A program made the translations under genes and the position numbers. A stretch of DNA of 37,254 bases from a virus: positions 1 through 37,254 of the IMG/VR virus record IMGVR_UViG_3300010236_000005; one strand, written 5' to 3'. Shown in pieces: positions 3,915 through 37,254 of this stretch; position 1 is the stretch's first letter, and every line of letters begins with the position of its first letter. The notes beneath the pieces were generated by a model. It did not search any database. It was not told the DNA's origin and saw only the letters and a list, made by a program, of their open reading frames with translations.

Positions 3915-4568
3915 ATGAAACCTATAGTTTATACCTGCGTTTATGGAGATTATGACAACCTCAAACCTCAACCTGATATTGGTGCTGATTATATTTGTTT
4001 TACTGACAATCCTAACCTCAAGAGTGAGACCTGGGATATAAGATACGAGCCTATTTACCAACACCTACACCCAAGATTAAGAGCTAAGTTCCATAAGTTA
4101 ATATGTCCTTTTGACACCCTTTCACTTTTTATAGACGGAAGTATTGAGATAGTAAATCCTAATATCTTTGACGAGCTTTCCAACTTTTTACATAATGGCT
4201 GGGCTACATACGTTCACCCTTCAGGGAGGGATTGTATTAAGAGTGAGTTAGTAGAGTCTCTCCCTTTTGAAAAATATGATGGGCAACCTATGCAGGAGCA
4301 AATAGACTATTATTTTGACCAGGGTATGCCAGAACACTTTGGCCTCTGGGCCTGTGGAGTTATGTTGAGAGATGGAAAGTTTGAAGACTTTGGAAGTAAG
4401 TGGATGTTGGAGAATTTAGCCTGGTCGTATCAGGATCAGCTTTCACTCCCTTACCTCGTATGGAAAGAGAAGTTTCCTTTGGACAGTATCCGCTTAGACC
4501 AATATGCATGGCTTAATAGTCCAGGAGAAGAGCTATTTAAGATTTACACTCACAATAAAGATGACTAA
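3915..4568 (+). CDS. Glycosyltransferase-like protein (DUF616/TOD1-type)
   Basis: IVYTCVYGDYDNLKPQP...ADYICFTDNP...W.I...HPRLRAKFHKL...LFIDGSIEI resembles the DUF616 glycosyltransferase-like signature. Confidence 0.5.
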   Translation: MKPIVYTCVYGDYDNLKPQPDIGADYICFTDNPNLKSETWDIRYEPIYQHLHPRLRAKFHKLICPFDTLSLFIDGSIEIVNPNIFDELSNFLHNGWATYVHPSGRDCIKSELVESLPFEKYDGQPMQEQIDYYFDQGMPEHFGLWACGVMLRDGKFEDFGSKWMLENLAWSYQDQLSLPYLVWKEKFPLDSIRLDQYAWLNSPGEELFKIYTHNKDD

Positions 4569-5262
4569 GTTAGCGGTTTGCACTTGTGTTTACAACAAGG
4601 TTGATTACTTTAGGGAATATCTTTGGTCTTTAAGTAATCAAACCTTCAAGGATTTTACTCTTTATGTCTGGGATGATGGGAGCGAAGAGGATGTTAAAGG
4701 GGCAATAGACGAATACAAGGATAAAATAGACATAGTAGCTAAGTATGCAGAGCCTATACACAATATAGGGACTGTTAAGAGTTATGTGGTCAATATGGCC
4801 CTCAAGGATAACCCTAAGTATATACAAATGACTGATAGCGATGACCTACTAGAACCCAATATGCTAGAAAGAATGGTAAAAGAGGTAGAAGATACAGGGG
4901 CGGACTTTGTAATTTGTGATGGCAAAATCTTTGGAGAAGATGGAGAAAGAAGTATAAGGAACAACCTGAATAGTGACATGGAGGCTGGTCTGGCCATAGA
5001 AAAAGGAAACCCTTTTTTTAGTTGGGGACTCTTTAGGGCCGAAGTGTTAAGGGAACAAAACTTTAGGGTAGGTATGCAACACCTAGAAGACTGGGATTTA
5101 TACATTAGGCTTATAAAGGCTAGAAGGAAGCACTCGATAATTAGGGAAGAGTTATATAATTACAGGACTCATTCTGGGCAATTTCATAAAGTAACCAACA
5201 GGGACTTTGAGAAGCATAGAAGAAACTTATGGGAGATAAATAACATTGGGGACAGTAATTAA
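4561..5262 (+). CDS. Family 2 glycosyltransferase
   Basis: LAVCTCVYNKVDYFREYLWSLSNQTFKDFTLYVWDDGSEED plus a DSDD (DXD) motif. Start trimmed from the ORF-track 4504 to the ATG at 4561, which overlaps the upstream stop by 8 nt. Confidence 0.8.
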   Translation: MTKLAVCTCVYNKVDYFREYLWSLSNQTFKDFTLYVWDDGSEEDVKGAIDEYKDKIDIVAKYAEPIHNIGTVKSYVVNMALKDNPKYIQMTDSDDLLEPNMLERMVKEVEDTGADFVICDGKIFGEDGERSIRNNLNSDMEAGLAIEKGNPFFSWGLFRAEVLREQNFRVGMQHLEDWDLYIRLIKARRKHSIIREELYNYRTHSGQFHKVTNRDFEKHRRNLWEINNIGDSN

Positions 5263-7408: not shown

Positions 7409-8443
7409 ATGGCAAGGAGGAAAGCGAGTAAGAGGAAGCGAGGACGACCTAAGGGAAGTAAGAATAAACCCAAGGGACCAGTAACTAAAATAAAAATACC
7501 TAAGAAGATGGAAGGCATATATACCTCACCGAGCGAGAAGGACTTTAAAAGCAAAGAGGACATTAAGATAGAAAAGATGTATAAGGGCAACGTTTCTGTA
7601 GAATACCCAGACAGGTATATAACGGAGTTATCTTTTGACGAGCTTAATGAGGAAATGATAAGAAGAAGTCGTTTAAGAAAAAAGGTTGAGTTAAAGGAAT
7701 ATGAGACCACTATAGAGATAGAGACAGATAGGCCTATTGGAGTAGTTTGGTGGGCCGACCAGCATGTTGGGGGACAATTTGTTGATTATGAGAGACTTAA
7801 ATGGGAGGCTGACGAGATAAAGGCAAACCCCTATTTAAAGATTGGTCTTGGTGGGGACTTCAGTGACTCTTTTGTGTGGCTTCCAGCTGCTTTTGACGAC
7901 GTTGCAAACCTAACAGAACAGAACTTATATCTTTATAGGTTGATGGAGTATGTCGGGTGGGACAAGATACTTTTCTGTGTCATTGGTAATCACCCAAAGT
8001 GGTCTAGGAGGAGTGGGTTAGATGGCTACGACGAGATGAGGAGGAGAGTCCCCGTTTTTGAGGGTGTAGGAACTGTAGACTTACAGGTAAACGGAATTTC
8101 TTATCTTGGGGCAATTATACATAAAGCAAAGGGGACTTCCTATCTTGACCCTAATTTCGGTGGAAAAAGATTTCTACGAGAAAATGATGGCTATGACTTT
8201 GTAATGACAGCACACAACCACGAGGGGGGTTCTCAAACTATTAACAGAAAAGACACAAAAGGGGCGAGAGAGGTGGCCCTATTAGCAGGGAAGACCTTTA
8301 AAGAAACGGACGATTTTAGTGATACTCAAGGATTTAAGAAAAAAACGGGAGTTGGGCTTGGGAGTAATGGAATAATATTTGACCATAAGAAAAAGAGTAT
8401 GTTACCAGTAAGTTCCTTTAATAAATTGTTAGACTATATTTAG
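7409..8443 (+). CDS. Calcineurin-like metallophosphoesterase with an N-terminal AT-hook-like basic tail
   Basis: Motifs ADQHVGG (DxH), LGGDFSD (GD), IGNHPKW (GNH), TAHNHEGG. N-terminus is MARRKASKRKRGRPKGSKNKPKGP with an RGRP core. Confidence 0.75.
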   Translation: MARRKASKRKRGRPKGSKNKPKGPVTKIKIPKKMEGIYTSPSEKDFKSKEDIKIEKMYKGNVSVEYPDRYITELSFDELNEEMIRRSRLRKKVELKEYETTIEIETDRPIGVVWWADQHVGGQFVDYERLKWEADEIKANPYLKIGLGGDFSDSFVWLPAAFDDVANLTEQNLYLYRLMEYVGWDKILFCVIGNHPKWSRRSGLDGYDEMRRRVPVFEGVGTVDLQVNGISYLGAIIHKAKGTSYLDPNFGGKRFLRENDGYDFVMTAHNHEGGSQTINRKDTKGAREVALLAGKTFKETDDFSDTQGFKKKTGVGLGSNGIIFDHKKKSMLPVSSFNKLLDYI

Positions 8444-9153: not shown

Positions 9154-9786
9154 ATGCCAAGAAAAAATCCAAAACTATGGTATTCCACACATAAAGAGGA
9201 GGTCCTAAAATACCAAAAAGAATATCAGGAGAAAAATAAAGAGAAAATAAGGGAAACTAAAAGAAGATGGAGAGAGGAAAATAAAGCTGAGTTGAAAAAG
9301 AAAAAACACCAATACTATCTAGAAAATAAAGAGAAGATAAGCAACCAAAAAAAGGAATGGGTAAAAGCAAATAAAGAGAGAAAGAAGGAAACTGACAGGA
9401 AATGGAGAGAACAAAAACTAAGGGAAAACCCAAGATATTTTACAGATAAAAAAAGGGAATGGATTAAAAAGAACCCAGAGAAACACTCCATTCACCTAAG
9501 AGTCCAAAAATATAAAAGACGAGCTGCTGGGTGTAGAAATAACGAGAAGGGCAGGATGTCTAAAATTTTCAGTGACCTCGTTCTCGAGAAACTCAGAGAG
9601 CAAGAATATTCCTGTTTATACTGTGGGACGGATATCAAAACAACATACACGATTGACCATATAGTTCCGATTTCTAAGGGTGGCAAAAACGAGATAGAAA
9701 ACATAGACTTGGTGTGTAGTCACTGTAATTCGCTTAAGGGAGTCAAGAGTAAAGAGGAGTTTTTATTACTCAGTCTGGACACTTAG
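9154..9786 (+). CDS. HNH endonuclease with a Lys/Glu-rich repeat N-terminus
   Basis: C-terminus YSCLYCGTDIKTTYTIDHIVPISKGGKNEIENIDLVCSHCNSLKG. The N-terminus has repeated K-x-W-x-x-x-N-K/P-E-K units. Confidence 0.85.
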   Translation: MPRKNPKLWYSTHKEEVLKYQKEYQEKNKEKIRETKRRWREENKAELKKKKHQYYLENKEKISNQKKEWVKANKERKKETDRKWREQKLRENPRYFTDKKREWIKKNPEKHSIHLRVQKYKRRAAGCRNNEKGRMSKIFSDLVLEKLREQEYSCLYCGTDIKTTYTIDHIVPISKGGKNEIENIDLVCSHCNSLKGVKSKEEFLLLSLDT

Positions 9787-10172: not shown

Positions 10173-10374
10173 GAGGAGAAAGAGAGACTAAAGGGTTAAG
10201 GGTTCTTCTGCCCTCCGACATACTGGTAGAGCCAGTCCCTGAAGTGAAGTGAGGAAGCTCGAGTTTTCGGTTAAGTTTCCAAGATAGCTAGTTTAATTAT
10301 AGGAAGTAGTTAAGCTAGAAGATTTAATATTATATTCCTGTGGTCTATTTACTGAGACTAGAGGAGAAAGAGAG
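10173..10374 (+). repeat. 14-bp exact direct repeat GAGGAGAAAGAGAG (10173..10186 and 10361..10374)
   Basis: The second copy is the Shine-Dalgarno region of the HNH gene at 10379. The first copy is an orphan 188 bp upstream. Confidence 0.7.
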
Positions 10375-10378
10375 GAAA

Positions 10379-10867
10379 ATGAGGAAAGAGGGATGGATTG
10401 ATTACAAAGAGTATCTTGAGTCGGACATTTGGAAAAAGAAGAGAGATAAGATGGTGGCCGAGGCAGGGGAGTGTGAGATATGTGGGGCAACTTCTAACCT
10501 GGTTGTACATCATCTAAGATATCAATATAAAAGCGGTCGTTCAGTTTTGGGAAGGGAAAGAAAAACGGATCTTGCTGTGTTGTGTTGGGATTGTCACAAG
10601 AGGATGCATGAGGAGTATGGCAGGGGTGCAAGTTTTGGGAGGAGAGAAATAGAGGAACAAAAAGGAACCTGGTTGATATGCCTTAGTGATGGTTTAGTAA
10701 TCCCCACAAGCAAAATGGTAGTAGACATGTTTGAGAAATTATCCGAATATGATTACATTAAGTGGGGGAGAATTATTTTCAACAGAGAACAGATAACAAT
10801 GTTTGTAGAAAAGGAAGCTTACAAAGACTTATTAGCTTACAGAAAGAAGTTTGACAAGGAAGTATAA
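10379..10867 (+). CDS. HNH endonuclease-like protein
   Basis: GECEICGATSNLVVHHLRYQ...DLAVLCWDCHKRMHEEYG. Start trimmed from the GTG at 10340 to the ATG at 10379, which has a strong purine-rich SD. Confidence 0.7.
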   Translation: MRKEGWIDYKEYLESDIWKKKRDKMVAEAGECEICGATSNLVVHHLRYQYKSGRSVLGRERKTDLAVLCWDCHKRMHEEYGRGASFGRREIEEQKGTWLICLSDGLVIPTSKMVVDMFEKLSEYDYIKWGRIIFNREQITMFVEKEAYKDLLAYRKKFDKEV

Positions 10868-13238: not shown

Positions 13239-13811
13239 ATGAAAGAAGTTTGGAAAGAGGTTTTTGATAACAAGTATTACCTAGTGAGTAACAAAGGGAG
13301 GATAAGAAGTCTGTTTACAAATAAGGAAAGAAGTCCGTTTACAACTAAAAAGGGTTACAAGAGGGTAGGTCTTTATTATTACGAAAAGGGTAGGGATGAG
13401 GGGGAGTTAGATAAGAGAGGAAGAAAGAGAAAAACGCTGAAAAGATATGGGATGGAGGGGGTCCAGAAGAACAAGTTGGTTCATCAGTTAGTGTTGAGGA
13501 CTTTTACAAAAAAACCTGAGTGGGCGACGATGGTAAATCATAAGGATGGCGATAAAAAGAATAATTCTCTTGAGAACCTGGAGTGGTCAACTAATTCTAG
13601 GAATATGAGGCATGCTTATAAGAACGGGTTGAATAAGAGGAGGAGTGGGGAGGAGTCGGGGAATAGTCGTTTAAAGATAGAAGAAGTTAGGGAGATTAGG
13701 AAGAGGATAAAAGAAGGAGATTCAGATACAACGATAGGAAGAGACTACGATGTTACTGCGGCCAATATATATAGAATACGGAAAGGCCAGACCTGGAAAG
13801 GTTGGGAGTAA
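13239..13811 (+). CDS. HNH homing-endonuclease-like protein (NUMOD4-like N-terminus, HNH_3 core, C-terminal HTH)
   Basis: WKEVFDNKYYLVSNKGRIRSL; VHQLVLRTF...VNHKDGDKKNNSLENLEWSTNSRNMRHA; C-terminal GRDYDVTAANIYRIRKGQTW. Confidence 0.85.
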   Translation: MKEVWKEVFDNKYYLVSNKGRIRSLFTNKERSPFTTKKGYKRVGLYYYEKGRDEGELDKRGRKRKTLKRYGMEGVQKNKLVHQLVLRTFTKKPEWATMVNHKDGDKKNNSLENLEWSTNSRNMRHAYKNGLNKRRSGEESGNSRLKIEEVREIRKRIKEGDSDTTIGRDYDVTAANIYRIRKGQTWKGWE

Positions 13812-15716: not shown

Positions 15717-16126
15717 GAGAGATTAAATTCAGGGTGTGGAGTTCAGAGTCTAAGAAGATGTATTTACCTAAGAAGGGTTGTGATTTCCTAGTAAGGATTG
15801 ATGGGGAATACTTTGTAGACGAAGATATAGTTGAGAATGTAGGACTAATATCAGTAAAGAGAGAGGACTATATTCTTATGCAATACACAGGACTAAAAGA
15901 CAAGAGTGGTCAGGAGATATACGAGTTGATGGAATTAAATGGAAAATATAAGGTTGTTTACATAGCACCATCATATGTCTTGTATGATATATCAACTGGT
16001 GATATAATAGAGTATGAAAAACAAAACAAATATGAGATTACTAGAGAATACTCGCCGTTACAGAAGAACGAAGAAAGGTGTATTGACGAATATATATTAC
16101 AAACAAAAGGAAAGAAGTATGATTAA
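15713..16126 (+). CDS. YopX-family protein
   Basis: IKFRVWSSESKKMY...LMQYTGLKDKSGQEIYE matches the YopX signature. Confidence 0.8.
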   Translation: MREIKFRVWSSESKKMYLPKKGCDFLVRIDGEYFVDEDIVENVGLISVKREDYILMQYTGLKDKSGQEIYELMELNGKYKVVYIAPSYVLYDISTGDIIEYEKQNKYEITREYSPLQKNEERCIDEYILQTKGKKYD

Positions 16127-16541
16127 AGGATATCCAGAACCAAACTATACACTTGGTGATTTGCACAATAAGTATTTAACAGATGGTAAATTTTCCAGGT
16201 TATACAATGAGTGGGTAAGAAGTGGATATCAAAAACAATATAAGCCAACGCTAGATAGAATTGATTGCAAGAAGCCATATTCATTAGATAATATACATCC
16301 GCTAAGTTGGGCAGAGAATAGGTATAAACAAAGGTGGGAGTTAAAAAGAACAAGGGCTAGAAAGGTGTTTATGTTGAAGGGGGATAATGTGGTTAAAGAG
16401 TTTAATAGTGTTACCGAAGCAGTTCGGAAGACGGGGCTACACCAGGGAAATATAAGTAGTTGTTTAAGTGGGAAAAGAAAGACAACTGGTGGCTACAAAT
16501 TCTCTTATGAGAACCCTAATTTGTTAAAGGAGGAGAAATGA
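16014..16541 (+). CDS. Degenerate HNH-like homing-endonuclease-type protein with a NUMOD1-like C-terminal DNA-binding motif
   Basis: LDRIDCKKPYSLDNIHPLSWAENRYK; VKEFNSVTEAVRKTGLHQGNISSCLSGKRKTTGGYKF. The long form overlaps yopX by 113 nt. An alternative ATG lies at 16119. Confidence 0.55.
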   Translation: MKNKTNMRLLENTRRYRRTKKGVLTNIYYKQKERSMIKGYPEPNYTLGDLHNKYLTDGKFSRLYNEWVRSGYQKQYKPTLDRIDCKKPYSLDNIHPLSWAENRYKQRWELKRTRARKVFMLKGDNVVKEFNSVTEAVRKTGLHQGNISSCLSGKRKTTGGYKFSYENPNLLKEEK

Positions 16542-20305: not shown

Positions 20306-21612
<1,307 letters not shown>

Positions 21613-21615
<3 letters not shown>

Positions 21616-24523: not shown

Positions 24524-24553
24524 TCGAGGCTTTAATTTTAGAATTTGGTTCAA

Positions 24554-25432
24554 ATGGCAGACTTTACAACATACGACAAGACCACGAACCATGAAGACCT
24601 AACTGACGTTTTAGTCACAATGGGACAGATGAAGAACCCCATGTTCTCCAATCTCCCTAAGGTTAAGGCAAAGAGTGTTCTTCATGAATGGCCAATTGAC
24701 TCCTATGCAGACGCAGCTGACAATGCACAGACTGAAGGTTTTTCCTACAGTTTTGCTTCATTAACAGCTCCTACTAGAGGTCAAAACTACACACAGATAT
24801 TTGCAAAAGATGGAAAAGTTACCAAGACTCAAAGAGCAGTAGACCCAGCAGGGTACAAAGATGAGTACGCTTATCAGGTAGAGAAAGCTCTTAAAGAGAT
24901 TGGTAGAGACATCGAAAAAGCTCTTATCAATGGTAGTGCGGCCGGTAGTGGTACAACAGGAACAGCTAGAACTTTGAAAGGTATCCTCGCTTGGATAACC
25001 TCCAACGTTTCTACTGGAACCGGAACAGGAAGGGACATCGAAGAGGCTGAGTTAAATAGCTTACTTGCTGATATTTATGCAGCAGGTGGTGATCCTGACA
25101 CCATTTTAGTAGCTCCTAAACAGAGAAACAAAATGGGAGACTTGTTCGAGAGTTCAAGGCAGTTCGTAGACAGTGTAAAGACTTTCACATCTGCAATCGC
25201 AGTTTATGAATCCAACTTTGGTATGATGCAAGTAGTAACGGATATTCAAATGCCTAACTCAGTAATTGCTGTGTTAGACTCAAGCACTTGGAAGATTCCA
25301 CAACTACGACCAGTAGCAAAGGAAGAGACAGCTAAGGTTTCAGACGGTGACGGATTTGTAGTAGTCGGTGAATTGACATTAGCTTCTTACGCAGAGAAGT
25401 ACAATGGACAAATCACAGGACTCGCATCCTAA
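24554..25432 (+). CDS. Major capsid protein (HK97 fold; resembles the DUF5309/SU10-type capsid family)
   Basis: HEDLTDVLV...PMFSNLPKVKAKSVLHEWPIDSYA...EGF...NYTQIF...TLKGILAWI... pattern. The ATG at 24554 is preferred to the ORF-track TTG at 24545. Confidence 0.8.
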   Translation: MADFTTYDKTTNHEDLTDVLVTMGQMKNPMFSNLPKVKAKSVLHEWPIDSYADAADNAQTEGFSYSFASLTAPTRGQNYTQIFAKDGKVTKTQRAVDPAGYKDEYAYQVEKALKEIGRDIEKALINGSAAGSGTTGTARTLKGILAWITSNVSTGTGTGRDIEEAELNSLLADIYAAGGDPDTILVAPKQRNKMGDLFESSRQFVDSVKTFTSAIAVYESNFGMMQVVTDIQMPNSVIAVLDSSTWKIPQLRPVAKEETAKVSDGDGFVVVGELTLASYAEKYNGQITGLAS

Positions 25433-25444
25433 TAGTCTTACTAA

Positions 25445-25468
25445 GGTGAGGGGCTTCGGCCCCTTGCC
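25445..25468 (+). terminator. Stable UUCG-tetraloop hairpin after the capsid gene (partial terminator or mRNA stabiliser)
   Basis: 10-bp stem (2 G-U) GGTGAGGGGC-TTCG-GCCCCTTGCC. The downstream tract is only weakly U-rich. Confidence 0.5.
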
Positions 25469-25491
25469 AGTCTTAATTTAGAGGAAGTATC

Positions 25492-25845
25492 ATGGCAAAA
25501 ACAGAGGAAATACTAGAATCAATCGCCCCGAAAAACGACAGGGAGCGACTCATTTTCAAAGAAGCAATACAAAACATAGTAAGGAAATTAGACAACCAGA
25601 ACAAGAAAATGGTTGACAACAACATTCCCTTATTTAAAGCTAACTACAAGCAGAGGAAGGGTGGCGACGGCTTTTCAAACGACAGGGAAATGCGGTTGGT
25701 TGCAGTAATTCCTACTGAAATGGCTACAATAGCTAAAAAGATGTACGGAGACGATGTGTTAACTAACAAGGCTAAGTTTAGAGAAGCCTTTGTTAAAAAC
25801 GAAGAGGGTAGGTATTGTTTAACAGTTGACCCTAAAAGTATATAA
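25492..25845 (+). CDS. Hypothetical head-module protein
   Basis: 117-aa ORF with an SD (GAGGAAG). No motif recognised. Confidence 0.5.
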   Translation: MAKTEEILESIAPKNDRERLIFKEAIQNIVRKLDNQNKKMVDNNIPLFKANYKQRKGGDGFSNDREMRLVAVIPTEMATIAKKMYGDDVLTNKAKFREAFVKNEEGRYCLTVDPKSI

Positions 25846-25863
25846 CTTAAATCGAGGAAACTC

Positions 25864-27060
25864 ATGGAAAAGAGACTACTTAGAGTGTTGTTTTTACCTG
25901 CTGATGACGGAGGTTGTGGACACCACAGAATCAGAATATTTAACTCGGCCTTTGAAAGACTAGGGTTAGCAGACAGTGCATTGTTAGAGCCTAATACAGA
26001 CGAGAAAGAGGCCAAGGCGGCCATAGAGTATGCTGATATAGTAGTAGGAAGGCTTAATACGATACAGTATATAAAACTAATCAAAAAGAACTGGCCTAAG
26101 AAGGTGGTAGTGTTTGACCATGACGACAATACTTTGCAGACCAAGCCAAGTAATCCTGCGTATAAGGACTTCGGAACAGAAGACGTTTGGGTTAAAGCTC
26201 AGGACGTTACTAAGACTTCTGCATACAAGAACGCTACTATTGGGACAAGGCTTAAAATGGAGAAGAGAGGAGAGATACCTCTATGGGTAACAGGTATTAC
26301 AGACGGGTTTAATAGGTATTTAAACCTTGACCAGCATATGTATTTATCATGGGGACTCCAGGCGTGTGATTTAGCAACGAGTCCTGTTCCTGAACTTACT
26401 AATATGTGGGCTCAATATTCAGACTTGGTTGCTACAGTTCCTAATTGTTTAGACTTTAGTTACTACCCAGACGTAGAAGTCAAGTCAAAGAAGGACGAAA
26501 TTAGAATAGGGTGGAGTGGAGGAAGTTCTCACAGTATGGACCTAAGGACTATCATACCTTCTATTAAGAAGCTAGCTAAAAAGCACAAGATTAAGTTAGT
26601 TATAAGTGGTTCACACTTCTCTGAGATATTCAAAGATTTAGGGGACTTGGTAGAATTTCACCCCTGGACTAAGTGGGAGGCACACCCTTACAGAATGAAA
26701 CTACTTGATTTAGACTTTGCTTTGATACCATTAGCTGATGATGAGTTCTTCAATAAGTTTAAGAGCGAGTTGAAGATGATGGAGTTTGCAGCCTTGAAGA
26801 TTCCTATGATTGTTAAGGATCAGTTACCATACTCTCCATACATAAAGAGGGGGGAGAATTGCCTTGCATACAAAACAGAGGACGAATTAGACAAGTGCCT
26901 AGACAAGATGGTTAAAATGAAGACCAAGGACAAGGAAAGAATGGCTAACGAGGCTTACAAGTGGGTTAAGGAGCACAGGGACGTAGAGAAAATAGCAAAA
27001 GACCTTGTTAAGGTATACAAGTCATTACTACCAGAAGAGACCCAAAAACTCGTGGTATAA
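25864..27060 (+). CDS. Glycosyltransferase-like protein (GT-B-type, tentative) inside the head/fibre module
   Basis: IRIGWSGGSSHSMDLRTIIPSIKKLAKKHKIKLVISG and a C-terminal Rossmann-like half resemble group-1-type glycosyltransferases. Confidence 0.5.
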   Translation: MEKRLLRVLFLPADDGGCGHHRIRIFNSAFERLGLADSALLEPNTDEKEAKAAIEYADIVVGRLNTIQYIKLIKKNWPKKVVVFDHDDNTLQTKPSNPAYKDFGTEDVWVKAQDVTKTSAYKNATIGTRLKMEKRGEIPLWVTGITDGFNRYLNLDQHMYLSWGLQACDLATSPVPELTNMWAQYSDLVATVPNCLDFSYYPDVEVKSKKDEIRIGWSGGSSHSMDLRTIIPSIKKLAKKHKIKLVISGSHFSEIFKDLGDLVEFHPWTKWEAHPYRMKLLDLDFALIPLADDEFFNKFKSELKMMEFAALKIPMIVKDQLPYSPYIKRGENCLAYKTEDELDKCLDKMVKMKTKDKERMANEAYKWVKEHRDVEKIAKDLVKVYKSLLPEETQKLVV

Positions 27061-27061
27061 T
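27053..27061 (+). promoter_or_regulatory. Extended -10 promoter TGGTATAAT
   Basis: Overlaps the stop codon of the upstream gene. A TCGAGG box lies 11 nt downstream. Confidence 0.5.
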
Positions 27062-27103
27062 TAAATAGGTAATCGAGGAAGAATTATTTATTAAGGAAAT
27101 ATA

Positions 27104-27766
27104 ATGACGTTCCTCGAAATGCAGACCGCTGTAGGGAATCTTATAAATCAAGATGTTTCTACAGACAATCTCACAGTAACAGAAACAGAAGTTAAGTTTA
27201 ACCTTAATCGTGGCTACCAGAAAGTTGTAAATAGAATTGCATCTTTGGCCCAGGATTATTATGTTAGACTCTCGAAGGCCAATTTAGTTGCCGACCAGAG
27301 CCTTTACGGGCTTCCTACAGACTACAGAAGGATGATAAGGGTAGAGATAGCCCCTGAAGACGCAGACGAGCGTTACAAGGCCTCTAGGGCCGACACAAAT
27401 TCTTTTGACCACCCAGTCGATTATTATGGAGACTCTACCAACCCTACGTACAGTGTCAGGGGGAATAACATAGAGATTAAACCTACGCCAGAGAACAATA
27501 TAACTAAAGGGTTGTGGATGTATTATGTTGAAACAGTATCAGACATGAGTGCTGATGACGATGAGCCTAATTTGCCACCAGAGTTTAGTGATTTACCAGT
27601 AGAGTATGCTGTGGCTAAGGCTAAGGCTAGGTTAGGGCTAATGGACGAGGCACAAATGCACTTAGCAGAGTTTTATAGAGAGTTAGAAGAAATGACAAGT
27701 GCCTTAGTAAATAGTAATAGTGACGACCCTGAGCAAGTGGTAGTGAGAGACCCTTATTTTGATTAG
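27104..27766 (+). CDS. Putative head-tail adaptor/connector protein
   Basis: 220-aa ORF. The call is positional only. Confidence 0.3.
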   Translation: MTFLEMQTAVGNLINQDVSTDNLTVTETEVKFNLNRGYQKVVNRIASLAQDYYVRLSKANLVADQSLYGLPTDYRRMIRVEIAPEDADERYKASRADTNSFDHPVDYYGDSTNPTYSVRGNNIEIKPTPENNITKGLWMYYVETVSDMSADDDEPNLPPEFSDLPVEYAVAKAKARLGLMDEAQMHLAEFYRELEEMTSALVNSNSDDPEQVVVRDPYFD

Positions 27767-27775
27767 TTCTTTATA

Positions 27776-28099
27776 ATGACAGACTGGACAGAAGTTGCAG
27801 ACGTAACAACTGAATACGGGAGCGGGGACATAGACTTCGCTATGCTCTCAGAAGACGGTGCTTATATGCTTACAGAAGATGGGGAGTACATAGTAGCAGA
27901 AGGTCCTATTACTGATTACACGGAAGTAGCAGACTCAAGTGAGAGGTATATTCCAGAGGGTGTAGGATTAAAACTTGCTACAGAGTCTTTTGCTTGGCTC
28001 TTAACAGAAGGAACAAGAATAAGGCTAATACACAGTAAAACAGACTTTACAGAAGTAGACGACGTTACTACAACTTGGACAGAAGTCGGGGACGCTTAA
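27776..28099 (+). CDS. Small acidic protein with a repeated TD[WYF]TEV[AD]D motif
   Basis: TDWTEVADV, TDYTEVADS, TDFTEVDDV and TTWTEVGDA read in the translation. Confidence 0.5.
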   Translation: MTDWTEVADVTTEYGSGDIDFAMLSEDGAYMLTEDGEYIVAEGPITDYTEVADSSERYIPEGVGLKLATESFAWLLTEGTRIRLIHSKTDFTEVDDVTTTWTEVGDA

Positions 28100-28114
28100 T
28101 TTAGAATTATATAA

Positions 28115-30319
<2,205 letters not shown>

Positions 30320-30374
30320 TTTAATCGCAGGAATACCCTGCTTACAAGAATGAAAGAGAACAATATTTAAACAA

Positions 30375-30382
30375 TGTATAAT
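30375..30382 (+). promoter_or_regulatory. -10 element TGTATAAT, 5 nt upstream of the ATG at 30388 (leaderless configuration)
   Basis: TATAAT is at 30377..30382 and the ATG at 30388. No SD. Confidence 0.5.
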
Positions 30383-30387
30383 ATATT

Positions 30388-31179
30388 ATGAAGAGAATAT
30401 CGGAGTATAACAACATAACAACAGTAAGTGAAAGCGATGTATTACCTATCGTTGATGTAAGTGATACAACTCAAGCTACAACAGGAAGCACGAGAAAGGG
30501 GACTATTGAAAAGATAGCAGACTACTTAAAGAGTAGAGTAGAGACACTTACTAATAAGACACTTACTACAGCAAGGCTAAATACTCCTAAAATAAACGAA
30601 GACGTTACAGTTACCGCAACTTCTACAGAGCTCAACCAATTAGACGGTGTGACTGTTGGTGGTACAGCTAGTGGCGACATTATAACCATAGACGATACAC
30701 AAACACTAACTTATAAAACCTTAACAAGTCCTACTATTACTGGGGGAACTATAGATGGGGCAAGGCCGATGGTTTCTGTTTGTCATTTAATGACTGGGAG
30801 TGGGCAAACCTTGACAAATCTCGCTAACACAGCCATTACCTTTGGCACTAATACAGAGCTTTATGACCCATTTGACTGGCACTCTGAGTCTACAAATACT
30901 TCTAGGATAACAATAGGAACTGCTGGCCTTTACTTTATTTATGGCTCAATTCAGGCTAATGATGACGCAACGGAGACTATAAGAATTGTCGGTATTTATA
31001 AAAACGGGACTAAGATAATGGATTCAAGGGGTGGAGTTGATGGTTCTGGAAGATGGGCTATGCCTGTATTTACCCCAGTTTCTTGTGCTATAAATGACTA
31101 CATAGAACTTAAATGCTACTTTCAGGGTGCTACTGATGGTTCGGTAGTTGTGGCTAATTTGGGGGTAATGAAGATATAA
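30388..31179 (+). CDS. Second tail fibre/receptor-binding protein (paralogue of the collagen fibre, without the collagen stalk)
   Basis: Shares the N-terminus (ISEYNNIT..VLPIVDVSDTT), the TLTNKTL / TQTLTYKTLTSP motifs and the C-terminal domain (HSESTNTSRITIGTAGLY vs [18 protein letters not shown]). Confidence 0.7.
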   Translation: MKRISEYNNITTVSESDVLPIVDVSDTTQATTGSTRKGTIEKIADYLKSRVETLTNKTLTTARLNTPKINEDVTVTATSTELNQLDGVTVGGTASGDIITIDDTQTLTYKTLTSPTITGGTIDGARPMVSVCHLMTGSGQTLTNLANTAITFGTNTELYDPFDWHSESTNTSRITIGTAGLYFIYGSIQANDDATETIRIVGIYKNGTKIMDSRGGVDGSGRWAMPVFTPVSCAINDYIELKCYFQGATDGSVVVANLGVMKI

Positions 31180-31196
31180 ACTTAGAGAACAGCCTA

Positions 31197-31310
31197 ATGA
31201 AACTTAAACACTACATACTAGGAGCAGGTCTTTTAATAGCCTTGTATTTTCTGCGGAATTACATTGCTTACATATTGTTTTTATTAAGTTTAGGAATATT
31301 TAGATTATGA
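31197..31310 (+). CDS. Candidate 37-aa two-helix hydrophobic micro-ORF (MKLKHYILGAGLLIALYFLRNYIAYILFLLSLGIFRL)
   Basis: Hand translation. ATGA overlap with the downstream gene start at 31307. It fills the 127-bp gap. Confidence 0.45.
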   Translation: MKLKHYILGAGLLIALYFLRNYIAYILFLLSLGIFRL

Positions 31311-32356
31311 GTGCAATAGTTGATAGTTATAGTGAAAGTAATCAGGATAATACAAATTTCCTTTATGATGTAGGTGGTAACGAAATTAGAGAAGCTGGTC
31401 AAAGTTTTACTGGTGGTGGGGGTGTACTCGATTATGCAAAATTATATATAGCCAAACAGGGTTCTGCAGTAGGGAGTATCCAATGTTTTGTATACGCTCA
31501 TTCTGGTACGTATGGAACATCTTCTGTTCCTACTGGTTCTGCGTTATCTACATCAGAATCTGTAGATATATCAACTCTCTCTGATTCGTTATCCCTTGTG
31601 ACGTTTCAATTCCCTAACGATTTAACCTTAGTTTCTGGAACTAAGTATTGTCTTGTTTGGTTAGTGACTGGTACTACAGGGGGAACATCTAGTGATAAAA
31701 ACTTACTTTATGGAAGGGATGTTTCAAGCCCTACTCATAGTGGGAACCTGATGTATTACTCTAGGTTTGATTCAACGTGGAATGCAGTTAGTAATAACGA
31801 CGCCATTTTTTATGTATACGAGAGTAGTACAGGTTGGGTAAGTCCAAGTGTTATTGAGAATGTAAGTTATGTAGCAAATGCTGACAATATTAAGGCTAGT
31901 GATGATACTTATGGTTCAGTAACAACAAGTTTTATGAGTGGGTTTTCTACTGATGGAATTATTGACCTATATATACCGTCTGGTGCTACCAATGTTAGAG
32001 TGAATGAGGACAAGGCGTTTACTTCTTTAAGTGGAGACGACTCTTATAGAAGCATGGGGGGAAGTAGTGATTTGTGGGGAGAGACATGGACAGTAGATGA
32101 CATAAATAGTGAATATTTCGGTATTTACTATTTTATTGACAGAGTAGATTTGAATAGTGGTAATTTTGATGCTCGAGGGTTTGGTTTAAGTATTCCTAGT
32201 GGCTCAACGATAGATGGAATCGAAGTTAGGGTTGAAGACTTTGGTTCTAGTAATCAGAACTTTATAGATAACATCCAGATTAAAGTATATTACACAGAAG
32301 GTTCTACTCCTACAGTTGGAACTAAATACCACCTACCTCCCTTTAAGAGAAGTTAA
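31307..32356 (+). CDS. Hypothetical Ser/Thr/Gly-rich structural protein (possible fibre or receptor-binding component)
   Basis: 349-aa ORF in the fibre module. No motif recognised. Confidence 0.35.
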   Translation: MSAIVDSYSESNQDNTNFLYDVGGNEIREAGQSFTGGGGVLDYAKLYIAKQGSAVGSIQCFVYAHSGTYGTSSVPTGSALSTSESVDISTLSDSLSLVTFQFPNDLTLVSGTKYCLVWLVTGTTGGTSSDKNLLYGRDVSSPTHSGNLMYYSRFDSTWNAVSNNDAIFYVYESSTGWVSPSVIENVSYVANADNIKASDDTYGSVTTSFMSGFSTDGIIDLYIPSGATNVRVNEDKAFTSLSGDDSYRSMGGSSDLWGETWTVDDINSEYFGIYYFIDRVDLNSGNFDARGFGLSIPSGSTIDGIEVRVEDFGSSNQNFIDNIQIKVYYTEGSTPTVGTKYHLPPFKRS

Positions 32357-32358
32357 GA

Positions 32359-32367
32359 TGATATAAT
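32359..32367 (+). promoter_or_regulatory. Extended -10 promoter TGATATAAT, 5 nt upstream of the ATG at 32373 (leaderless configuration)
   Basis: TATAAT ends at 32367 and the ATG is at 32373. No SD. Confidence 0.55.
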
Positions 32368-32372
32368 TAAGT

Positions 32373-32999
32373 ATGAACAAATCGAGGAACAAATGGAAAG
32401 AAGCTCAAGAATGGGAAGCCAAATGGTGGTCTGATTGTAGAAATACGACTTGGGAGGAAGTTAAACAAATGAACCTAGCCCCATACCTAGGTCTTCAAGT
32501 TATACCCAATGAATACACTAATTACAGAATCCCTATGAATGGGGAAACTATCTTAGATATAGGAGGGGGACCTTCTTCTATACTCCTTAAAATGGAAAAC
32601 ATTAAGGGAACAGTAATCGACCCTTGTGATTATCCTCAATGGGTTGCAGATCGCTATAAAGAAGCAGGAATAGAATACTTAAAAGAAAGAGCCGAAGACC
32701 TAGATACTAGCAGAAGATACGACGAAGTGCTTATATATAATTGCCTCCAGCATACCGAAAATCCCAAGAAAATAATAGACAACGCTAAAAAGGTTGGGAA
32801 ACTAATCCGCTTGTTTGAGTGGGTCAATACAAGGGTAAACGAAGGACACCCACACGCTTTTACTCCTGAGCAATTAGAAGAATGGCTAGGGGGCAAGGGC
32901 AAAGTAACTAAATTATCAGGGGGAGGGCTTTATGGAACTTCATTCAGCGGTGTCTTTCTTGGAGAAAACTATGATTCCAAGACAGAAAAAGAAATTTAG
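32373..32999 (+). CDS. Class I SAM-dependent methyltransferase
   Basis: Motif I ILDIGGGPSSILL. Acidic residue after beta-2 (VIDPCD). YDEVLIYNCLQH. Confidence 0.7.
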   Translation: MNKSRNKWKEAQEWEAKWWSDCRNTTWEEVKQMNLAPYLGLQVIPNEYTNYRIPMNGETILDIGGGPSSILLKMENIKGTVIDPCDYPQWVADRYKEAGIEYLKERAEDLDTSRRYDEVLIYNCLQHTENPKKIIDNAKKVGKLIRLFEWVNTRVNEGHPHAFTPEQLEEWLGGKGKVTKLSGGGLYGTSFSGVFLGENYDSKTEKEI

Positions 33000-34167
33000 A
33001 GTCCACATAGTAGGGCTATCACATTTACCAGTTAGTAGGAAATATATGGGCTGTGCTTTCACTTTGAAGGCATGGAAGATGGCTCGTATGCTTATGGAGC
33101 AGGGTCATGAAGTTTATGTATATGGAGCAGAGGGTGGGGACGCACCTTGTACTGAATATGTAGAAACCCATACTTTAGAGGACATAGCTAACGAATGGGG
33201 GGACGGGGATAATCGCTTTGACATAGGTTACGATTGGAGAAAAGGAATGTTTAGACACGATATTAACAAGCCTAGAAGTAAAACCACACAGAAGTTCATA
33301 GACAATTCCATAAAAGAGATTAACAAGAGAAAACAATCAGACGATTTTCTAATGATTATGCAGGGTTATTATAACAAGGACATAGCAGACGCTGTGAACC
33401 TATTTTTAACAATGGAACCAGGTATAGGATATAGAGGGAGTATTCCTCAATTATCGACAGGTAGAACAGTCTATAGGGGCTTTGAGAGTAGTTACATTAT
33501 GAACTACACTTACGGGAGGGAAAATGCTAAAAATGGCTCGACTGCAAATGGTGCATACTACGACAGGGTATTTCCTAACTACTTTGAGAAAGAAGATTTT
33601 ACTTACAAGGAGAAAAAGGACGATTACTTCTTCTTTATAGGGAGGTTAATATACAGAAAAGGTGTAAGAACAGCCATTGAAACAGCTAAGGCACTTAATA
33701 CTAAGATTTACATAGCAGGACAACTTGACGACAGTGAAAAAATAGACATGAGCGATCCTCTAGTAGAGTATATAGGTTATGTTGACCCAGAAAAGAGAAC
33801 CGAAATGATGGCCAATGCCAAGGCTTGTTTCATACCTACTTATTACTTAGAACCTTTTGGAGGGACTAATGTAGAAAGTCAATTATGTGGTACACCAGTA
33901 CTAACAACAGACTTTGGGGCTTTTCTTGATACAGTTGTCCAGGGTGTAACAGGTTTCAGATGTCACACTTTAAGCGATTTTGTAGAGTGTGCTAAGTTAG
34001 TTGACACGCTTGACCCTAAAAAGATAAGGAAACACGCAGAAAGATACCTAACCGACAATATGCAGTGGGAATTAGAAGACTGGATGAGGGAACTCTACCA
34101 GGTATACTTATCAGCTACAGTTCCAGGCACAAAGGGGTGGCATTACACTCGTGATATAATTAAATAG
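32971..34167 (+). CDS. GT-B glycosyltransferase (GT4/group-1 type)
   Basis: EPFGGTNVESQLCGTPVLTTDFGAFLDTVVQGVTGF is the E-x7-E region. Start trimmed to the ATG at 32971, which overlaps the methyltransferase by 29 nt. Confidence 0.8.
   Translation: MIPRQKKKFRVHIVGLSHLPVSRKYMGCAFTLKAWKMARMLMEQGHEVYVYGAEGGDAPCTEYVETHTLEDIANEWGDGDNRFDIGYDWRKGMFRHDINKPRSKTTQKFIDNSIKEINKRKQSDDFLMIMQGYYNKDIADAVNLFLTMEPGIGYRGSIPQLSTGRTVYRGFESSYIMNYTYGRENAKNGSTANGAYYDRVFPNYFEKEDFTYKEKKDDYFFFIGRLIYRKGVRTAIETAKALNTKIYIAGQLDDSEKIDMSDPLVEYIGYVDPEKRTEMMANAKACFIPTYYLEPFGGTNVESQLCGTPVLTTDFGAFLDTVVQGVTGFRCHTLSDFVECAKLVDTLDPKKIRKHAERYLTDNMQWELEDWMRELYQVYLSATVPGTKGWHYTRDIIK
34152..34160 (+). promoter_or_regulatory. Extended -10 promoter TGATATAAT
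   Basis: Overlaps the end of the GT4 gene. A TCGAGG box lies 11 nt downstream. Confidence 0.5.
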
Positions 34168-34199: not shown

Positions 34200-35669
34200 A
34201 TGGAAGTTCAGAGAACCTCGAGGGTTAAGACTAAATACAACGATTTTTCAGGTGGTGTGCAGGTATATACTTCTCCTTTATGGGTTAAGGACAATGAGAC
34301 CCCATTTTGTCAGAATATAGACATAAGCAGACCAGGAGAGTTAAGAAAAGCACTAGGATACACTCAATTAGGAACTACTACAGGTGGCAATGCCCCAAGA
34401 GGGGGATTTGTATTCGACAAAGAAGACGGAACAAGTACTATTTTCAAGGTTACTGACAACAAATTAACTAAATGGGGGACAAGTTGGACAGAAGTTACAG
34501 GAGCAGAAACCATAGCCTCAGGAACAGACCCGATAGAGGCTAGGCTTATGTATATCAACACAGGGACAGGAATAGGAACAGGAGCAGACACCTTTGTAGA
34601 AAGAATGTACTTTACACTAGGACTTAATGACGAAGTTAAATACACGAACGGTTCAACTATCGGAGAGATAGCCAATGTTTACGCCAAGCATATAGAAGCT
34701 TACAAGGGAAGGATTTATCTCGGAAATGTTAAACAAGGCTCTAAAGCCCACCCAACAAGAGTATTATACGGTGGAGTTTCGGATGATGATTTTACAGACC
34801 CAGACTTTATAGACGAATTAGGAGAGCCAATAACAGCATTAAAAGAATACTCGGGGAGTTTGTTTATATACTCAGAGAACAAACTAGCCGCTTATGACGA
34901 ATACAAATTACAGGTAATCCCAGGAAGTTATGGGACTACCAGTTCGGCCACAGTACAGGATGTTATGGGAAGACTTGTGTGGTACAACCGAGGTGGGGTT
35001 TATATGTATCAAGGAGGAGGTTCTCCACAAGAGATAAGTAAAAGAGTTCAGGACTGGATTGAGGCCATATCAGATGCTAAGGAGGTTACAGCAGGAGTAG
35101 ATGAAGAAGACAGATACAACCTTTACATAGGGGATGTAACAGTAGGGGGAGTTGCTTATAGTGATGTTGTACTTAGGTATGATGTTACATTAAACGCTTG
35201 GGACATACTCCCAGACAGGCCATTTAAGTACTGGTTAAGGAAAAGAAGTGGAGGGGTCTTTGAAATATATGCTACGGATGTTGACAATGATAAAATGTGG
35301 AGAGTAAACAATGGCAGATCGCTTAACGGAGCAGAAATAGAAAGTGTATGGCAGAGTGCAAAATTGGACATGGGACAACCTGATACACTTAAGAACTTTT
35401 ATAAAGCACACGTTGTATTCAAGCCACAAGGCGTAAATGAGTACTTTACATTGCAGTACAGACTAGACGGGGCTACAGGTTGGAATAACATAGGCAATAC
35501 TACAAGTAATGTGTCAGTAAGTGGTAGTGATGATATAGAAGTTAAGAAGTTAGAATTTCCTGGTAACACACAGGGTCAGTTTATACAGTTTAAGTTATCG
35601 CACAATTCTACTGGACACGGATTTAATTTATATGAGTTAAATATTAACAATGACGAACTCAGGTCGTGA
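34200..35669 (+). CDS. Large tail structural protein (function unassigned)
   Basis: 489-aa ORF in the tail module. No motif recognised with certainty. Confidence 0.4.
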   Translation: MEVQRTSRVKTKYNDFSGGVQVYTSPLWVKDNETPFCQNIDISRPGELRKALGYTQLGTTTGGNAPRGGFVFDKEDGTSTIFKVTDNKLTKWGTSWTEVTGAETIASGTDPIEARLMYINTGTGIGTGADTFVERMYFTLGLNDEVKYTNGSTIGEIANVYAKHIEAYKGRIYLGNVKQGSKAHPTRVLYGGVSDDDFTDPDFIDELGEPITALKEYSGSLFIYSENKLAAYDEYKLQVIPGSYGTTSSATVQDVMGRLVWYNRGGVYMYQGGGSPQEISKRVQDWIEAISDAKEVTAGVDEEDRYNLYIGDVTVGGVAYSDVVLRYDVTLNAWDILPDRPFKYWLRKRSGGVFEIYATDVDNDKMWRVNNGRSLNGAEIESVWQSAKLDMGQPDTLKNFYKAHVVFKPQGVNEYFTLQYRLDGATGWNNIGNTTSNVSVSGSDDIEVKKLEFPGNTQGQFIQFKLSHNSTGHGFNLYELNINNDELRS

Positions 35670-37141: not shown

Positions 37142-37155
37142 TTCGAATAATGGTG

Positions 37156-37254
37156 TGGTATAATTATATAAGAGTATCGAGGGCATTTATTTGTTACTAA
37201 GAAAGAATGAAAATAACCGTTAGGCCTAGAGACTCTCTAAGTGCTATTCTCAAG
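37156..37254. repeat. Exact 99-bp terminal duplication, copy 2 (includes a truncated second copy of the LysM gene start at 37207..37254)
   Basis: Identical to 1..99. The ATG at 37207 repeats the ATG at 52. Confidence 0.95.

Follow-up and report, generated by a model that had tools for sequence, protein, structure and literature searches.

A methyltransferase-glycosyltransferase gene pair that accompanies Thr-rich collagen-like tail fibres in phages

Introduction

What do the sugar-modifying enzymes encoded around a collagen-like phage tail fibre act on? The question is raised by the viral record IMGVR_UViG_3300010236_000005, which we analysed as a whole (37,254 nucleotides; the window) and which encodes a tail fibre with collagen-like G-X-Y triplets at 28115-30319. 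An earlier note, made from the sequence alone, proposed that a glycosyltransferase (GT) with a GT-B-like fold at 25864-27060, a class I S-adenosylmethionine (SAM) methyltransferase (MTase) at 32373-32999, and a GT4 enzyme at 32971-34167 form a single set with which the phage decorates this fibre. All of the open reading frames (ORFs) that it named are present where it placed them. Here we report that the MTase and GT4 genes co-occur with Thr-rich collagen, both in the lineage of this phage and across unrelated phages, whereas the GT-B-like gene is not a member of the set. We favour, with moderate confidence, the reading that MTase and GT4 constitute a mobile module, carried by phages, for the maturation of collagen-like tail fibres rich in Thr, in which GT4 would glycosylate Thr residues of the stalk.

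Virus-encoded virion glycosylation is already known, and so is Thr glycosylation of collagen-like proteins. Viral and bacterial collagen-like proteins contain unusually many Thr triplets. This has been "rationalized" by Thr glycosylation, with when and how it happens left open (PMC11923368, 2025). Only once its Thr residues carry galactose does a (Gly-Pro-Thr)10 peptide cease to be a random coil, and K-G-D/E salt bridges are another hydroxyproline-free means of holding a triple helix (PMC11923368). SgtA of C. difficile, a GT-A protein with tetratricopeptide repeats (TPR) whose gene is beside bclA3, modifies the Thr residues of GPT repeats with beta-O-GlcNAc in vitro (PMC7157674). A virus-encoded GT and class I MTase are found together in Paramecium bursaria chlorella virus 1 (PBCV-1), whose A064R and A061L add methyl groups to a capsid glycan that the virus itself makes (PMC9614988). 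Our literature search found no paper linking phage collagen-like fibres to phage GTs.

Results

The MTase and GT4 genes encode recognizable enzymes

The assignment of the first gene as a class I SAM MTase was borne out. Its product scored 23.7 bits against Methyltransf_11 (PF08241; cut-off, 21.2) and has an invariant DIGGGP SAM loop, and its AlphaFold2 model (predicted local distance difference test score, pLDDT, of 93) has the class I MTase fold. Foldseek matches to the model were mixed, including NodS and EvdMO1 (both sugar), BamL and NTMT1 (both peptide N terminus), and small-molecule MTases. The GT4 assignment also held. The protein scored 67.6 bits against Glycos_transf_1 (PF00534; cut-off, 26.4), which places it in the family. 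It matched PDB entry 7fg9 at 1e-16, and its E-x7-E motif (EPFGGTNVE, amino acids 294 to 302, nucleotides 33850 to 33876) aligned to the conserved block of that protein. No NCBIfam family was above cut-off for any of the enzymes in the window.

The ATG at 32971 overlaps the MTase stop (32999) by 29 nucleotides, as the earlier note had said, and the gene call of the source record (LDZT01) uses the same start. An alternative in-frame ATG at 32932 has a stronger Shine-Dalgarno sequence and would extend the overlap to 68 nucleotides. The note took the overlap to mean translational linkage. However, several relatives have an HNH-type endonuclease gene between MTase and GT4, and therefore translational coupling is not obligatory. 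These endonuclease genes are exactly at the junction (L051:3567-4106, L054:8195-8719, L055:8181-8744, L067:8575-9102, and L068:8587-9105; L numbers designate loci). The call was made from the signature by eye in L054 and from Pfam HNH_3 in L068 (opposite strand). The MTase/GT4 junction seems to be a homing site.

The window has four more sugar-related genes: the GT-B-like gene and, at 3915-6099, three GT-like ORFs that form an island. None of the six products had a transmembrane segment (maximum 19-residue hydropathy, 1.42) or a signal-like region. Because they have no transmembrane segment, the enzymes look cytoplasmic and would act where virions assemble.

The main fibre has a Thr-rich stalk and a putative C1q/TNF-like head

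The fibre begins with an anchor (amino acids 1 to 49) that it has in common with the second fibre at 30388-31179. Its stalk has 108 G-X-Y triplets in seven runs, close to the roughly 110 estimated earlier. Thr was said to occupy the Y position overwhelmingly, but it is only the majority residue (61 of 108, 56%), followed by Gln (19, 18%) and Lys (15, 14%). The triplets are rich in GDT, GVT, and GAT. GDT makes up 30% and GPT 0%, and 14% are of the salt-bridge type, K-G-D/E.

A head profile made from the main fibre and three relatives matched Eiger (5.9e-5), adiponectin (0.011), and C1q-C (0.014) in the PDB. Because this profile matches the C1q/TNF superfamily, we read the architecture as BclA/C1q-like, with a collagen stalk and a C1q-like head. 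The likeness to BclA drawn in the earlier note therefore stands for architecture but not for triplet composition, in which GPT is absent and GDT has the frequency given above. Pfam BclA_C did not match the window fibres at E values up to 0.1, and the second fibre of one relative (L006) matched only at 0.011.

The stalk is interrupted by a module of about 55 amino acids that resembles CBM5/12 (W..AW...T.Y...D.V...G..Y.C...HTS......G..W...W). The same insert is conserved in the collagen fibres of lineage relatives and of unrelated phages that have MTase and GT4 (L067, L068; L067:6141-7931). It may be a registration or trimerization node or a glycan-binding module.

Slot content covaries with collagen composition within the lineage

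The fibre genes are followed by a variable slot that is closed by the gene for a 489-amino-acid structural protein. We gathered related loci through the capsid protein (19 loci) and through the 489-amino-acid protein (40 loci) and mapped all window proteins on them. Both the fibre and the slot were visible in 18 distinct relatives. The state of the slot matched the composition of the collagen in 18/18 (Table 1). The co-occurrence with G-X-T fibres that the earlier note had put forward as a check is therefore strongly positive for the MTase+GT4 pair, here and across unrelated phages (see below).

Table 1. Slot content and collagen composition in 18 relatives of the window phage
Class	Slot enzyme	Loci	Thr at Y	Pro at X	GDT	GPT	K-G-D/E
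A	MTase+GT4	7	52-72%	3-6%	9-30%	0%	4-14%
B	GT2-TPR (288 aa) or GT2-TPR-MTase fusion (467-482 aa)	6	62-83%	35-57%	0-4%	29-45%	0-4%
C	None	5	6-17%	0-13%	0-8%	0-2%	19-31% in 4/5

The stalks of class C are short, with 13 to 51 triplets. In class B (L006, L025, L029, L036, L040, and L050), a GT2-TPR gene is beside GPT collagen. This second cassette is not homologous to MTase+GT4, and among curated families the SunS peptide glycosyltransferases matched it best (5e-14, below cut-off).

The most telling comparison is with L006, which is near-identical to the window in its portal (99%), capsid (97%), and 489-amino-acid protein (95%). Its fibre is GPT-rich, and its slot has a GT2+TPR+Methyltransf_11 fusion in place of MTase, GT4, and the 349-amino-acid protein (p349) encoded before them. 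The MTases of L006 and the window have only the SAM loop in common. Therefore, the combination of GT and MTase function was recruited twice.

We also compared the cassettes with the receptor-binding tips. Tips of one family, which end in RATCAYL, are found with all three slot states (cassette A in L055; cassette B in L006, L025, L036, and L040; no cassette in L035, L046, and L047), and within this family the collagen composition follows the cassette in every case. Conversely, cassette A was found with five tip types. Thus, the cassette follows the composition of the stalk and not the receptor-binding tip, and the idea that it tracks the tip was rejected.

The pair accompanies Thr-rich collagen outside the lineage

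Members of the MTase family are found almost only in viruses, with 427 loci in IMG/VR compared with 16 loci (from metagenome-assembled genomes) in 185,579 bacterial and archaeal species genomes. We surveyed the best 80 of the 427 loci, which have 42 to 69% identity to the window MTase and are on contigs of up to 159 kb, mostly not SU10-like. The order MTase-GT4 was found in 48/80. A Thr-rich collagen ORF was on the same strand within 7 kb in 42 of these 48 loci (upstream in 37), or in 26/27 when only loci with adequate flanks were counted. In contrast, it was found at only 3 of 32 unpaired MTase loci. After deduplication at 70% identity (47 clusters), collagen accompanied 29/31 MTase-GT4 clusters and 3/16 unpaired ones (Fisher's P = 3.5e-7). 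The association spans podo-, sipho-, and myovirus-like backbones, presumably with different hosts, and persists at 42 to 50% MTase identity. On contigs that bear a tape measure gene, what lies upstream is a gene for GDT/GxQ collagen that has the CBM5/12 insert of the window fibre.

Among GenBank phages, the MTase was found only in the cultured Synechococcus phage ACG-2014f. The gene order there is baseplate hub, hypothetical protein, collagen-repeat protein (gp015 in NC_026927.1; 132 triplets, 45% Thr), small ORF, MTase, GT, 2-oxoglutarate (2OG)-Fe(II) oxygenase, small ORF, and tail fibre. The window GT4 is 36 to 38% identical to the GTs of ACG-2014f and Synechococcus phage S-CAM7, which are also beside collagen-repeat proteins. 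In S-CAM7, the GT comes directly after two of them. The 2OG-Fe(II) oxygenase gene is next to the GT in ACG-2014f (gp019, L176:11401-11994) and one gene further on in S-CAM7 (L001:9975-10571). The collagen-repeat proteins of these cyanomyophages have Pro at Y. The oxygenase could serve as a prolyl hydroxylase of the phage, with this same fibre as its substrate.

Relatives of cassette B also occur outside the lineage, with GPT collagen adjoining in 4/7 loci. Two contigs with GT2-TPR(-MTase) relatives are very large (L171, 527 kb; L172, 338 kb). On L171, the gene adjoins a collagen ORF of 1,358 amino acids with 201 triplets (65% Thr, 63 GPT).

Host-surface modification explains the pattern less well

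GTs in the tail-fibre region of aquatic phages are usually read as modifiers of the host surface (PMC7029224, PMC12801897). On that reading, GT4 and MTase would alter an envelope glycan (O-antigen, capsule, or S-layer) and so block superinfection or stop progeny from sticking to debris. Relatives of the GT4 enzyme include the lipid- or glycan-directed PimA and WbaZ, and a host-specific function would also be expected to travel with host-range genes. However, the cassette is independent of the receptor-binding tip, and collagen composition switches with it. Two non-homologous cassettes each come with a triplet type of their own, and the association across different virion backbones, presumably different hosts, counts against a host-specific role. 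The near absence of the MTase family from bacterial genomes is a further point against it. Moreover, the sugar genes have no transmembrane segments, and we found no Gtr-type membrane proteins (GtrA, GtrB, or GtrC). There was also no integrase among the ORFs scanned, which for positions 1-21,615 were 20 ORFs searched against Pfam, including all plus-strand ORFs of at least 200 amino acids there. We therefore consider host-surface modification unlikely.

Three sugar loci assort independently

A different possibility is that the MTase, GT4, GT-B-like gene, and 3915-6099 island all contribute to one pathway, whose product would be a methylated glycan of several sugars on the fibre and the capsid. 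The six sugar-related genes make up 14% of the 37-kb genome, which speaks for this. The earlier note named three of them and missed the island altogether.

We examined the GT-B-like gene, the second after the capsid gene. Its product scored below cut-off against Glyco_trans_1_2 (PF13524; 22.7 bits versus 25; E, 1e-4), and a sequence search against the PDB found nothing, so a predicted structure was used. The AlphaFold2 model, made from 28 homologues, had a pLDDT of 87 and a predicted template modelling (TM) score of 0.81. In the PDB, it matched the retaining GT4 enzymes BshA, MshA, PglA, and PimA (TM scores, 0.6 to 0.66; E, ~1e-12). All of the top 50 matches listed were GT-B glycosyltransferases, mostly of the GT4 family. 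The GT-B topology proposed from the sequence is thus borne out. There is no canonical E-x7-E in this protein, and the conserved C-terminal block reads KSELKMMEF (E-x4-E). Twenty-five residues are invariant across homologues of 26 to 86% identity, including the motifs DDGGCGxxR, FDHDDN, GGxSHxxD, and KSExKxxE. Because these residues are invariant down to 26% identity, the divergent family looks like an active enzyme.

A search for loci with the GT-B-like sequence as the single query found nothing, and its relatives were reached through the capsid and 489-amino-acid proteins. The gene is in every relative whose contig reaches the position (39 to 83% identity), always between the gene for a 117-amino-acid protein and the adaptor gene. 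It occurs in all three classes, including relatives with Thr-poor collagen and no cassette. Therefore, it is a core gene for a separate head-module enzyme that is not tied to collagen type, and its acceptor may be something else. The 3915-6099 island, which lies between genes for a holin-like transmembrane protein (3495-3767) and an amidase endolysin (6131-7036), is likewise a third sugar locus independent of cassette and collagen type. It occurs with cassette B (L025 and L050) and without a cassette (L027). Since the GT-B-like gene and the island occur regardless of the cassette, the three loci assort independently.

For this reason, we rejected a single three-enzyme GT-MTase-GT set, and we regard the broader one-pathway idea as decidedly unlikely. 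What survives of the proposal that the phage decorates its own fibre is the MTase+GT4 pair with its Thr-rich collagen; the GT-B-like gene falls out. One observation speaks for the one-pathway idea. In a distant SU10-type phage (L069:8324-10131), another methyltransferase gene (Methyltransf_31) is directly upstream of a 28%-identical homologue of the GT-B-like gene, right after the capsid gene. This second, independent pairing of GT and MTase leaves glycosylation of the capsid or another head protein as a lead but proves nothing.

Hitch-hiking and DNA glycosylation are improbable explanations

The MTase+GT4 module might have been co-transferred with the fibre gene while having an unrelated role, such as small-molecule or nucleotide-sugar metabolism. 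It always lies within a few kilobases of a collagen gene, recombination concentrates in fibre regions, and several relatives have HNH homing endonucleases inside the module. However, variable genes lie between the fibre and the cassette (second fibres, BspA-like leucine-rich-repeat [LRR] proteins, and p349-like proteins), and the association holds despite them, which argues against simple co-transfer of one block. Hitch-hiking also would not explain why one slot is occupied by two unrelated enzyme types that each go with a different type of collagen, why fibres with one tip but different stalks differ in cassette, or why the link persists at low MTase identity on unrelated backbones. We consider it quite improbable.

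The alpha- and beta-glucosyltransferases of phage T4 are GT-B enzymes, and they are a precedent for a role in glycosylating hydroxymethylated or hydroxylated pyrimidines of phage DNA to evade restriction. GT4-like, 7fg9-like enzymes have been proposed as DNA glycosyltransferases in Rhizobium phage RL38J1 and others, but we rejected this explanation as extremely improbable, because the thymidylate-synthase-like dCMP hydroxymethylase or hydroxylase, dNMP kinase, and dCTPase that it needs (PMC13326640) were not found among the 20 ORFs scanned in 1-21,615, the genes are in the structural module, and the link with collagen composition would be left unexplained.

Other features of the window

The features discussed here are collected in Table 2. 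The genome is that of a complete phage of ~37.15 kb, terminally redundant or circularly permuted, with a 99-bp direct repeat (1-99 = 37155-37253). All of its long ORFs are on the plus strand, and the structural module of the right end carries on in the left-end genes (a LysM protein and internal proteins). When 24545-34167 was compared with GenBank phages by Megablast, nothing matched, and at the DNA level this is a novel phage. In capsid protein, no GenBank phage record exceeds 36% identity, and the nearest include Pelagibacter phage HTVC106P and uncultured spring-water viruses. A scan for promoters and terminators found no enrichment over shuffles.

Table 2. Features of the window, in order of position
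Feature	Position	Strand	Evidence or remark
Island gene 1, GT-like, 217 aa	3915..4568	+	phrog_26101 glycosyltransferase, 5.9e-17; also in L025, L027, L050
Island gene 2, GT2 (GT-A) glycosyltransferase	4561..5262	+	Pfam Glycos_transf_2, 3e-17; NCBIfam EpsE-like, 3e-14, below cut-off
Island gene 3, 278 aa	5263..6099	+	Weak GT-B N-domain signal (Pfam Glyco_transf_4, 0.002); homologue in L027
Major capsid protein, SU10 type	24545..25432	+	Pfam SU10_MCP, 6.9e-76; phrog_1328
Terminator-like GC-rich hairpin just 3' of capsid stop	25445..25468	+	10-bp stem, 7 GC pairs; consensus match only
117-aa protein between capsid and GT-B-like genes	25492..25845	+	Kept in all relatives, 34-99% identity; no family match
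Core GT-B (GT4-like) glycosyltransferase, head module, 398 aa	25864..27060	+	phrog_7162, 3e-23; predicted structure
Head-to-tail adaptor, SU10 type	27104..27766	+	Pfam SU10_adaptor, 6e-16
107-aa acidic protein with T-D/N-W-T-E-V repeats	27776..28099	+	ORF; conserved in relatives
Main collagen-like tail fibre, 734 aa, proposed glycosylation acceptor	28115..30319	+	Pfam Collagen, 3e-48; PHROG tail-fibre families
Collagen-like region 1 (aa 50-287), five G-X-Y runs parted by ADSTVA breaks	28262..28975	+
CBM5/12-like non-collagen insert in stalk (aa 288-343)	28976..29143	+	Weak Pfam CBM_5_12, 7e-4
Collagen-like region 2 (aa 344-449)	29144..29461	+
Putative C1q/TNF-like C-terminal head, main fibre (about aa 595-734)	29897..30319	+	Profile against PDB
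Second short fibre, 263 aa, no collagen	30388..31179	+	Common anchor motif and putative C1q/TNF-like head; homologues in relatives
349-aa protein (p349), probably virion accessory	31307..32356	+	Tail G-x-K-Y-x-L-P-x-F-K/R; no family match
Class I SAM methyltransferase, 208 aa, first module gene	32373..32999	+	Methyltransf_11 above cut-off; phrog_3603, 1e-46
GT4 glycosyltransferase, second module gene	32971..34167	+	Glycos_transf_1, 1.2e-18; phrog_3408, 2.4e-80
489-aa virion structural protein, closes variable slot, comparative anchor	34200..35669	+	phrog_3287, 1e-18; 40 related loci

The tail of p349, G-x-K-Y-x-L-P-x-F-(K/R) (32314-32353), also ends unrelated slot proteins in L028, L036, L042, L002, L050, and L004. 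The proteins that have it include p349-like proteins, BspA-type LRR proteins, and a concanavalin-like protein. It looks like a docking peptide for exchangeable virion accessory proteins.

In the non-structural half (1-21,615), the Pfam scan found an Mre11-like exonuclease (7409-8443), YopX, a NinG-like protein, and endonucleases, and it recognized no DNA polymerase, primase, or helicase family among its 20 ORFs. At least four HNH/NUMOD endonuclease genes are in the window (9154-9786, 10340-10867, 13239-13811, and 16014-16541). A DNA N6/N4 methyltransferase gene (20317-21615) is between the terminase and portal genes. Its Pfam match covers amino acids 20 to 410 against a model of 221 positions, which indicates a large insertion of ~170 amino acids.

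Discussion

The domain identities, the gene order, and the covariation of cassette and collagen described above are direct observations. From them, we infer an acceptor, a sugar, a linkage, a methylation target, and a function, and with these the glycosylation of the fibre itself. In the mechanism that we propose, MTase and GT4 would be soluble proteins expressed with the late structural genes. GT4, as a member of a retaining family, would most likely move a sugar from a nucleotide sugar onto Y-position Thr residues in the G-X-T repeats of the fibre, with GDT as the best candidate sequon. The MTase would then act on the glycan so formed or, with lower likelihood, on the peptide. Two benefits are likely: stability of the triple helix, in a stalk with no hydroxyproline and few salt bridges, and a glycan coat on the fibre.

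Several points weigh against fibre maturation as the role of the module. It was proposed from gene neighbourhood, and because the module adjoins the fibre gene, co-transfer could give part of the association. The counts were corrected for kinship by identity clustering only, and a minority of MTase-GT4 clusters have no visible collagen (2/31 at 70% identity, 4/40 at 90% identity, and 1/27 with adequate flanks). The fold of the MTase does not separate sugar from peptide substrates. The sequence and structure neighbours of GT4 (the glucosylsucrose synthase 7fg9, BshA, and PimA) act on small molecules, lipids, and glycans, and there is no known protein O-glycosyltransferase among them. Also, with 14% of its triplets of the K-G-D/E salt-bridge type, the window stalk may not need glycosylation to fold.

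The three states of the slot fit the picture of triple-helix stabilization in PMC11923368, because Thr-rich stalks have an enzyme and salt-bridge stalks have none. This could amount to a stabilization code. Thr-rich stalks would have a dedicated cassette (MTase+GT4 for G-D/V/A-T and the SgtA-like GT2-TPR for G-P-T), whereas Thr-poor stalks would use K-G-D/E and have none. We see the case for such a code as evenly balanced.

The nearest counterparts of the proposed module are SgtA/BclA3 of C. difficile and BclA of B. anthracis, in which a GT gene also adjoins a gene for a Thr-rich collagen-like protein. BclA-type proteins share the collagen stalk and, apparently, the C1q/TNF-like head as well. 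SgtA adds an O-linked sugar to Thr of G-X-T repeats (PMC7157674), and the window GT4 is proposed to do likewise. However, SgtA is a GT-A+TPR protein, whereas the window has a GT-B/GT4 enzyme and a separate MTase. The window has no GT-A+TPR gene beside its fibres; its GT2 (4561-5262) is elsewhere and without TPR. Judged by architecture only, SgtA is instead like the GT2+TPR proteins beside the GPT fibres of the sister phages. The collagens differ too, since that of the window has no GPT and is rich in GDT, GVT, and GAT. Furthermore, the window fibre is predicted to be a virion protein made in the cytoplasm of the infected cell, whereas BclA and BclA3 are spore-surface proteins.

Other viruses also glycosylate their own proteins. 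Mycobacteriophages encode GTs that modify their virion proteins (Freeman et al. 2023, as described in PMC12619734). In that account, the acceptors are the C termini of capsid and tail-tube subunits, the hosts are actinobacteria, and no link with collagen repeats is described. By description, PBCV-1 A064R and A061L resemble the module as a virus-encoded cytoplasmic GT and class I MTase that equip a virion protein with a methylated glycan. The GT-GT-MTase fusion in A064R recalls the GT2-TPR-MTase fusion of L006. Mimivirus L230 glycosylates a viral collagen-like protein, but on hydroxylysine rather than Thr (PMC9614988). Both of these are giant viruses of eukaryotes, and in PBCV-1 the capsid protein bears its glycan through an N linkage. 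The likely effect on the stalk has its closest parallel in Riftia cuticle collagen and (Gly-Pro-Thr)10 peptides, in which glycosylated Thr at Y replaces hydroxyproline and stabilizes the triple helix (PMC11923368). However, these are animal or synthetic, with no enzyme cassette or viral context known.

The same genomic setting as that of the window module is found in the GTs of the tail-fibre hypervariable region of pelagiphages and cyanomyophages, and ACG-2014f and S-CAM7 have true homologues (36 to 44% identity) of the window GT4 and MTase. These GTs are currently read as modifiers of host O-chains or as DNA glucosyltransferases (PMC7029224, PMC12801897), and in the literature that we searched their link with collagen was not remarked on. 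The module also differs from Gtr-type O-antigen conversion in that its sugar genes encode no transmembrane segments and no integrase was found among the scanned ORFs.

What appears to be new, and we hold this with moderate confidence from comparing genomes, is a widespread phage module for Thr-rich collagen fibres, together with a second, non-homologous cassette, both absent from fibres of the salt-bridge type. The genomes thus give a testable candidate answer to when and how Thr in such collagens is glycosylated: phages with Thr-rich stalks carry their own enzymes, and phages with salt-bridge stalks do not. The common annotation of GTs in the tail-fibre region as host-surface or DNA modifiers (PMC7029224, PMC12801897) may need revising. 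If the stabilization code holds, fibre maturation, and not modification of host lipopolysaccharide or DNA, would be the role of many such GTs in environmental phages, marine cyanomyophages among them. Synechococcus phage ACG-2014f offers a cultured carrier of the module. Receptor-binding fibres would then join the capsid and tail-tube proteins of mycobacteriophages as targets of phage virion glycosylation. This would matter for stability, host range, and immune recognition, as well as for efforts to engineer recombinant collagens or the fibres of phages. Glycosyl-Thr would be a viral substitute for hydroxyproline.

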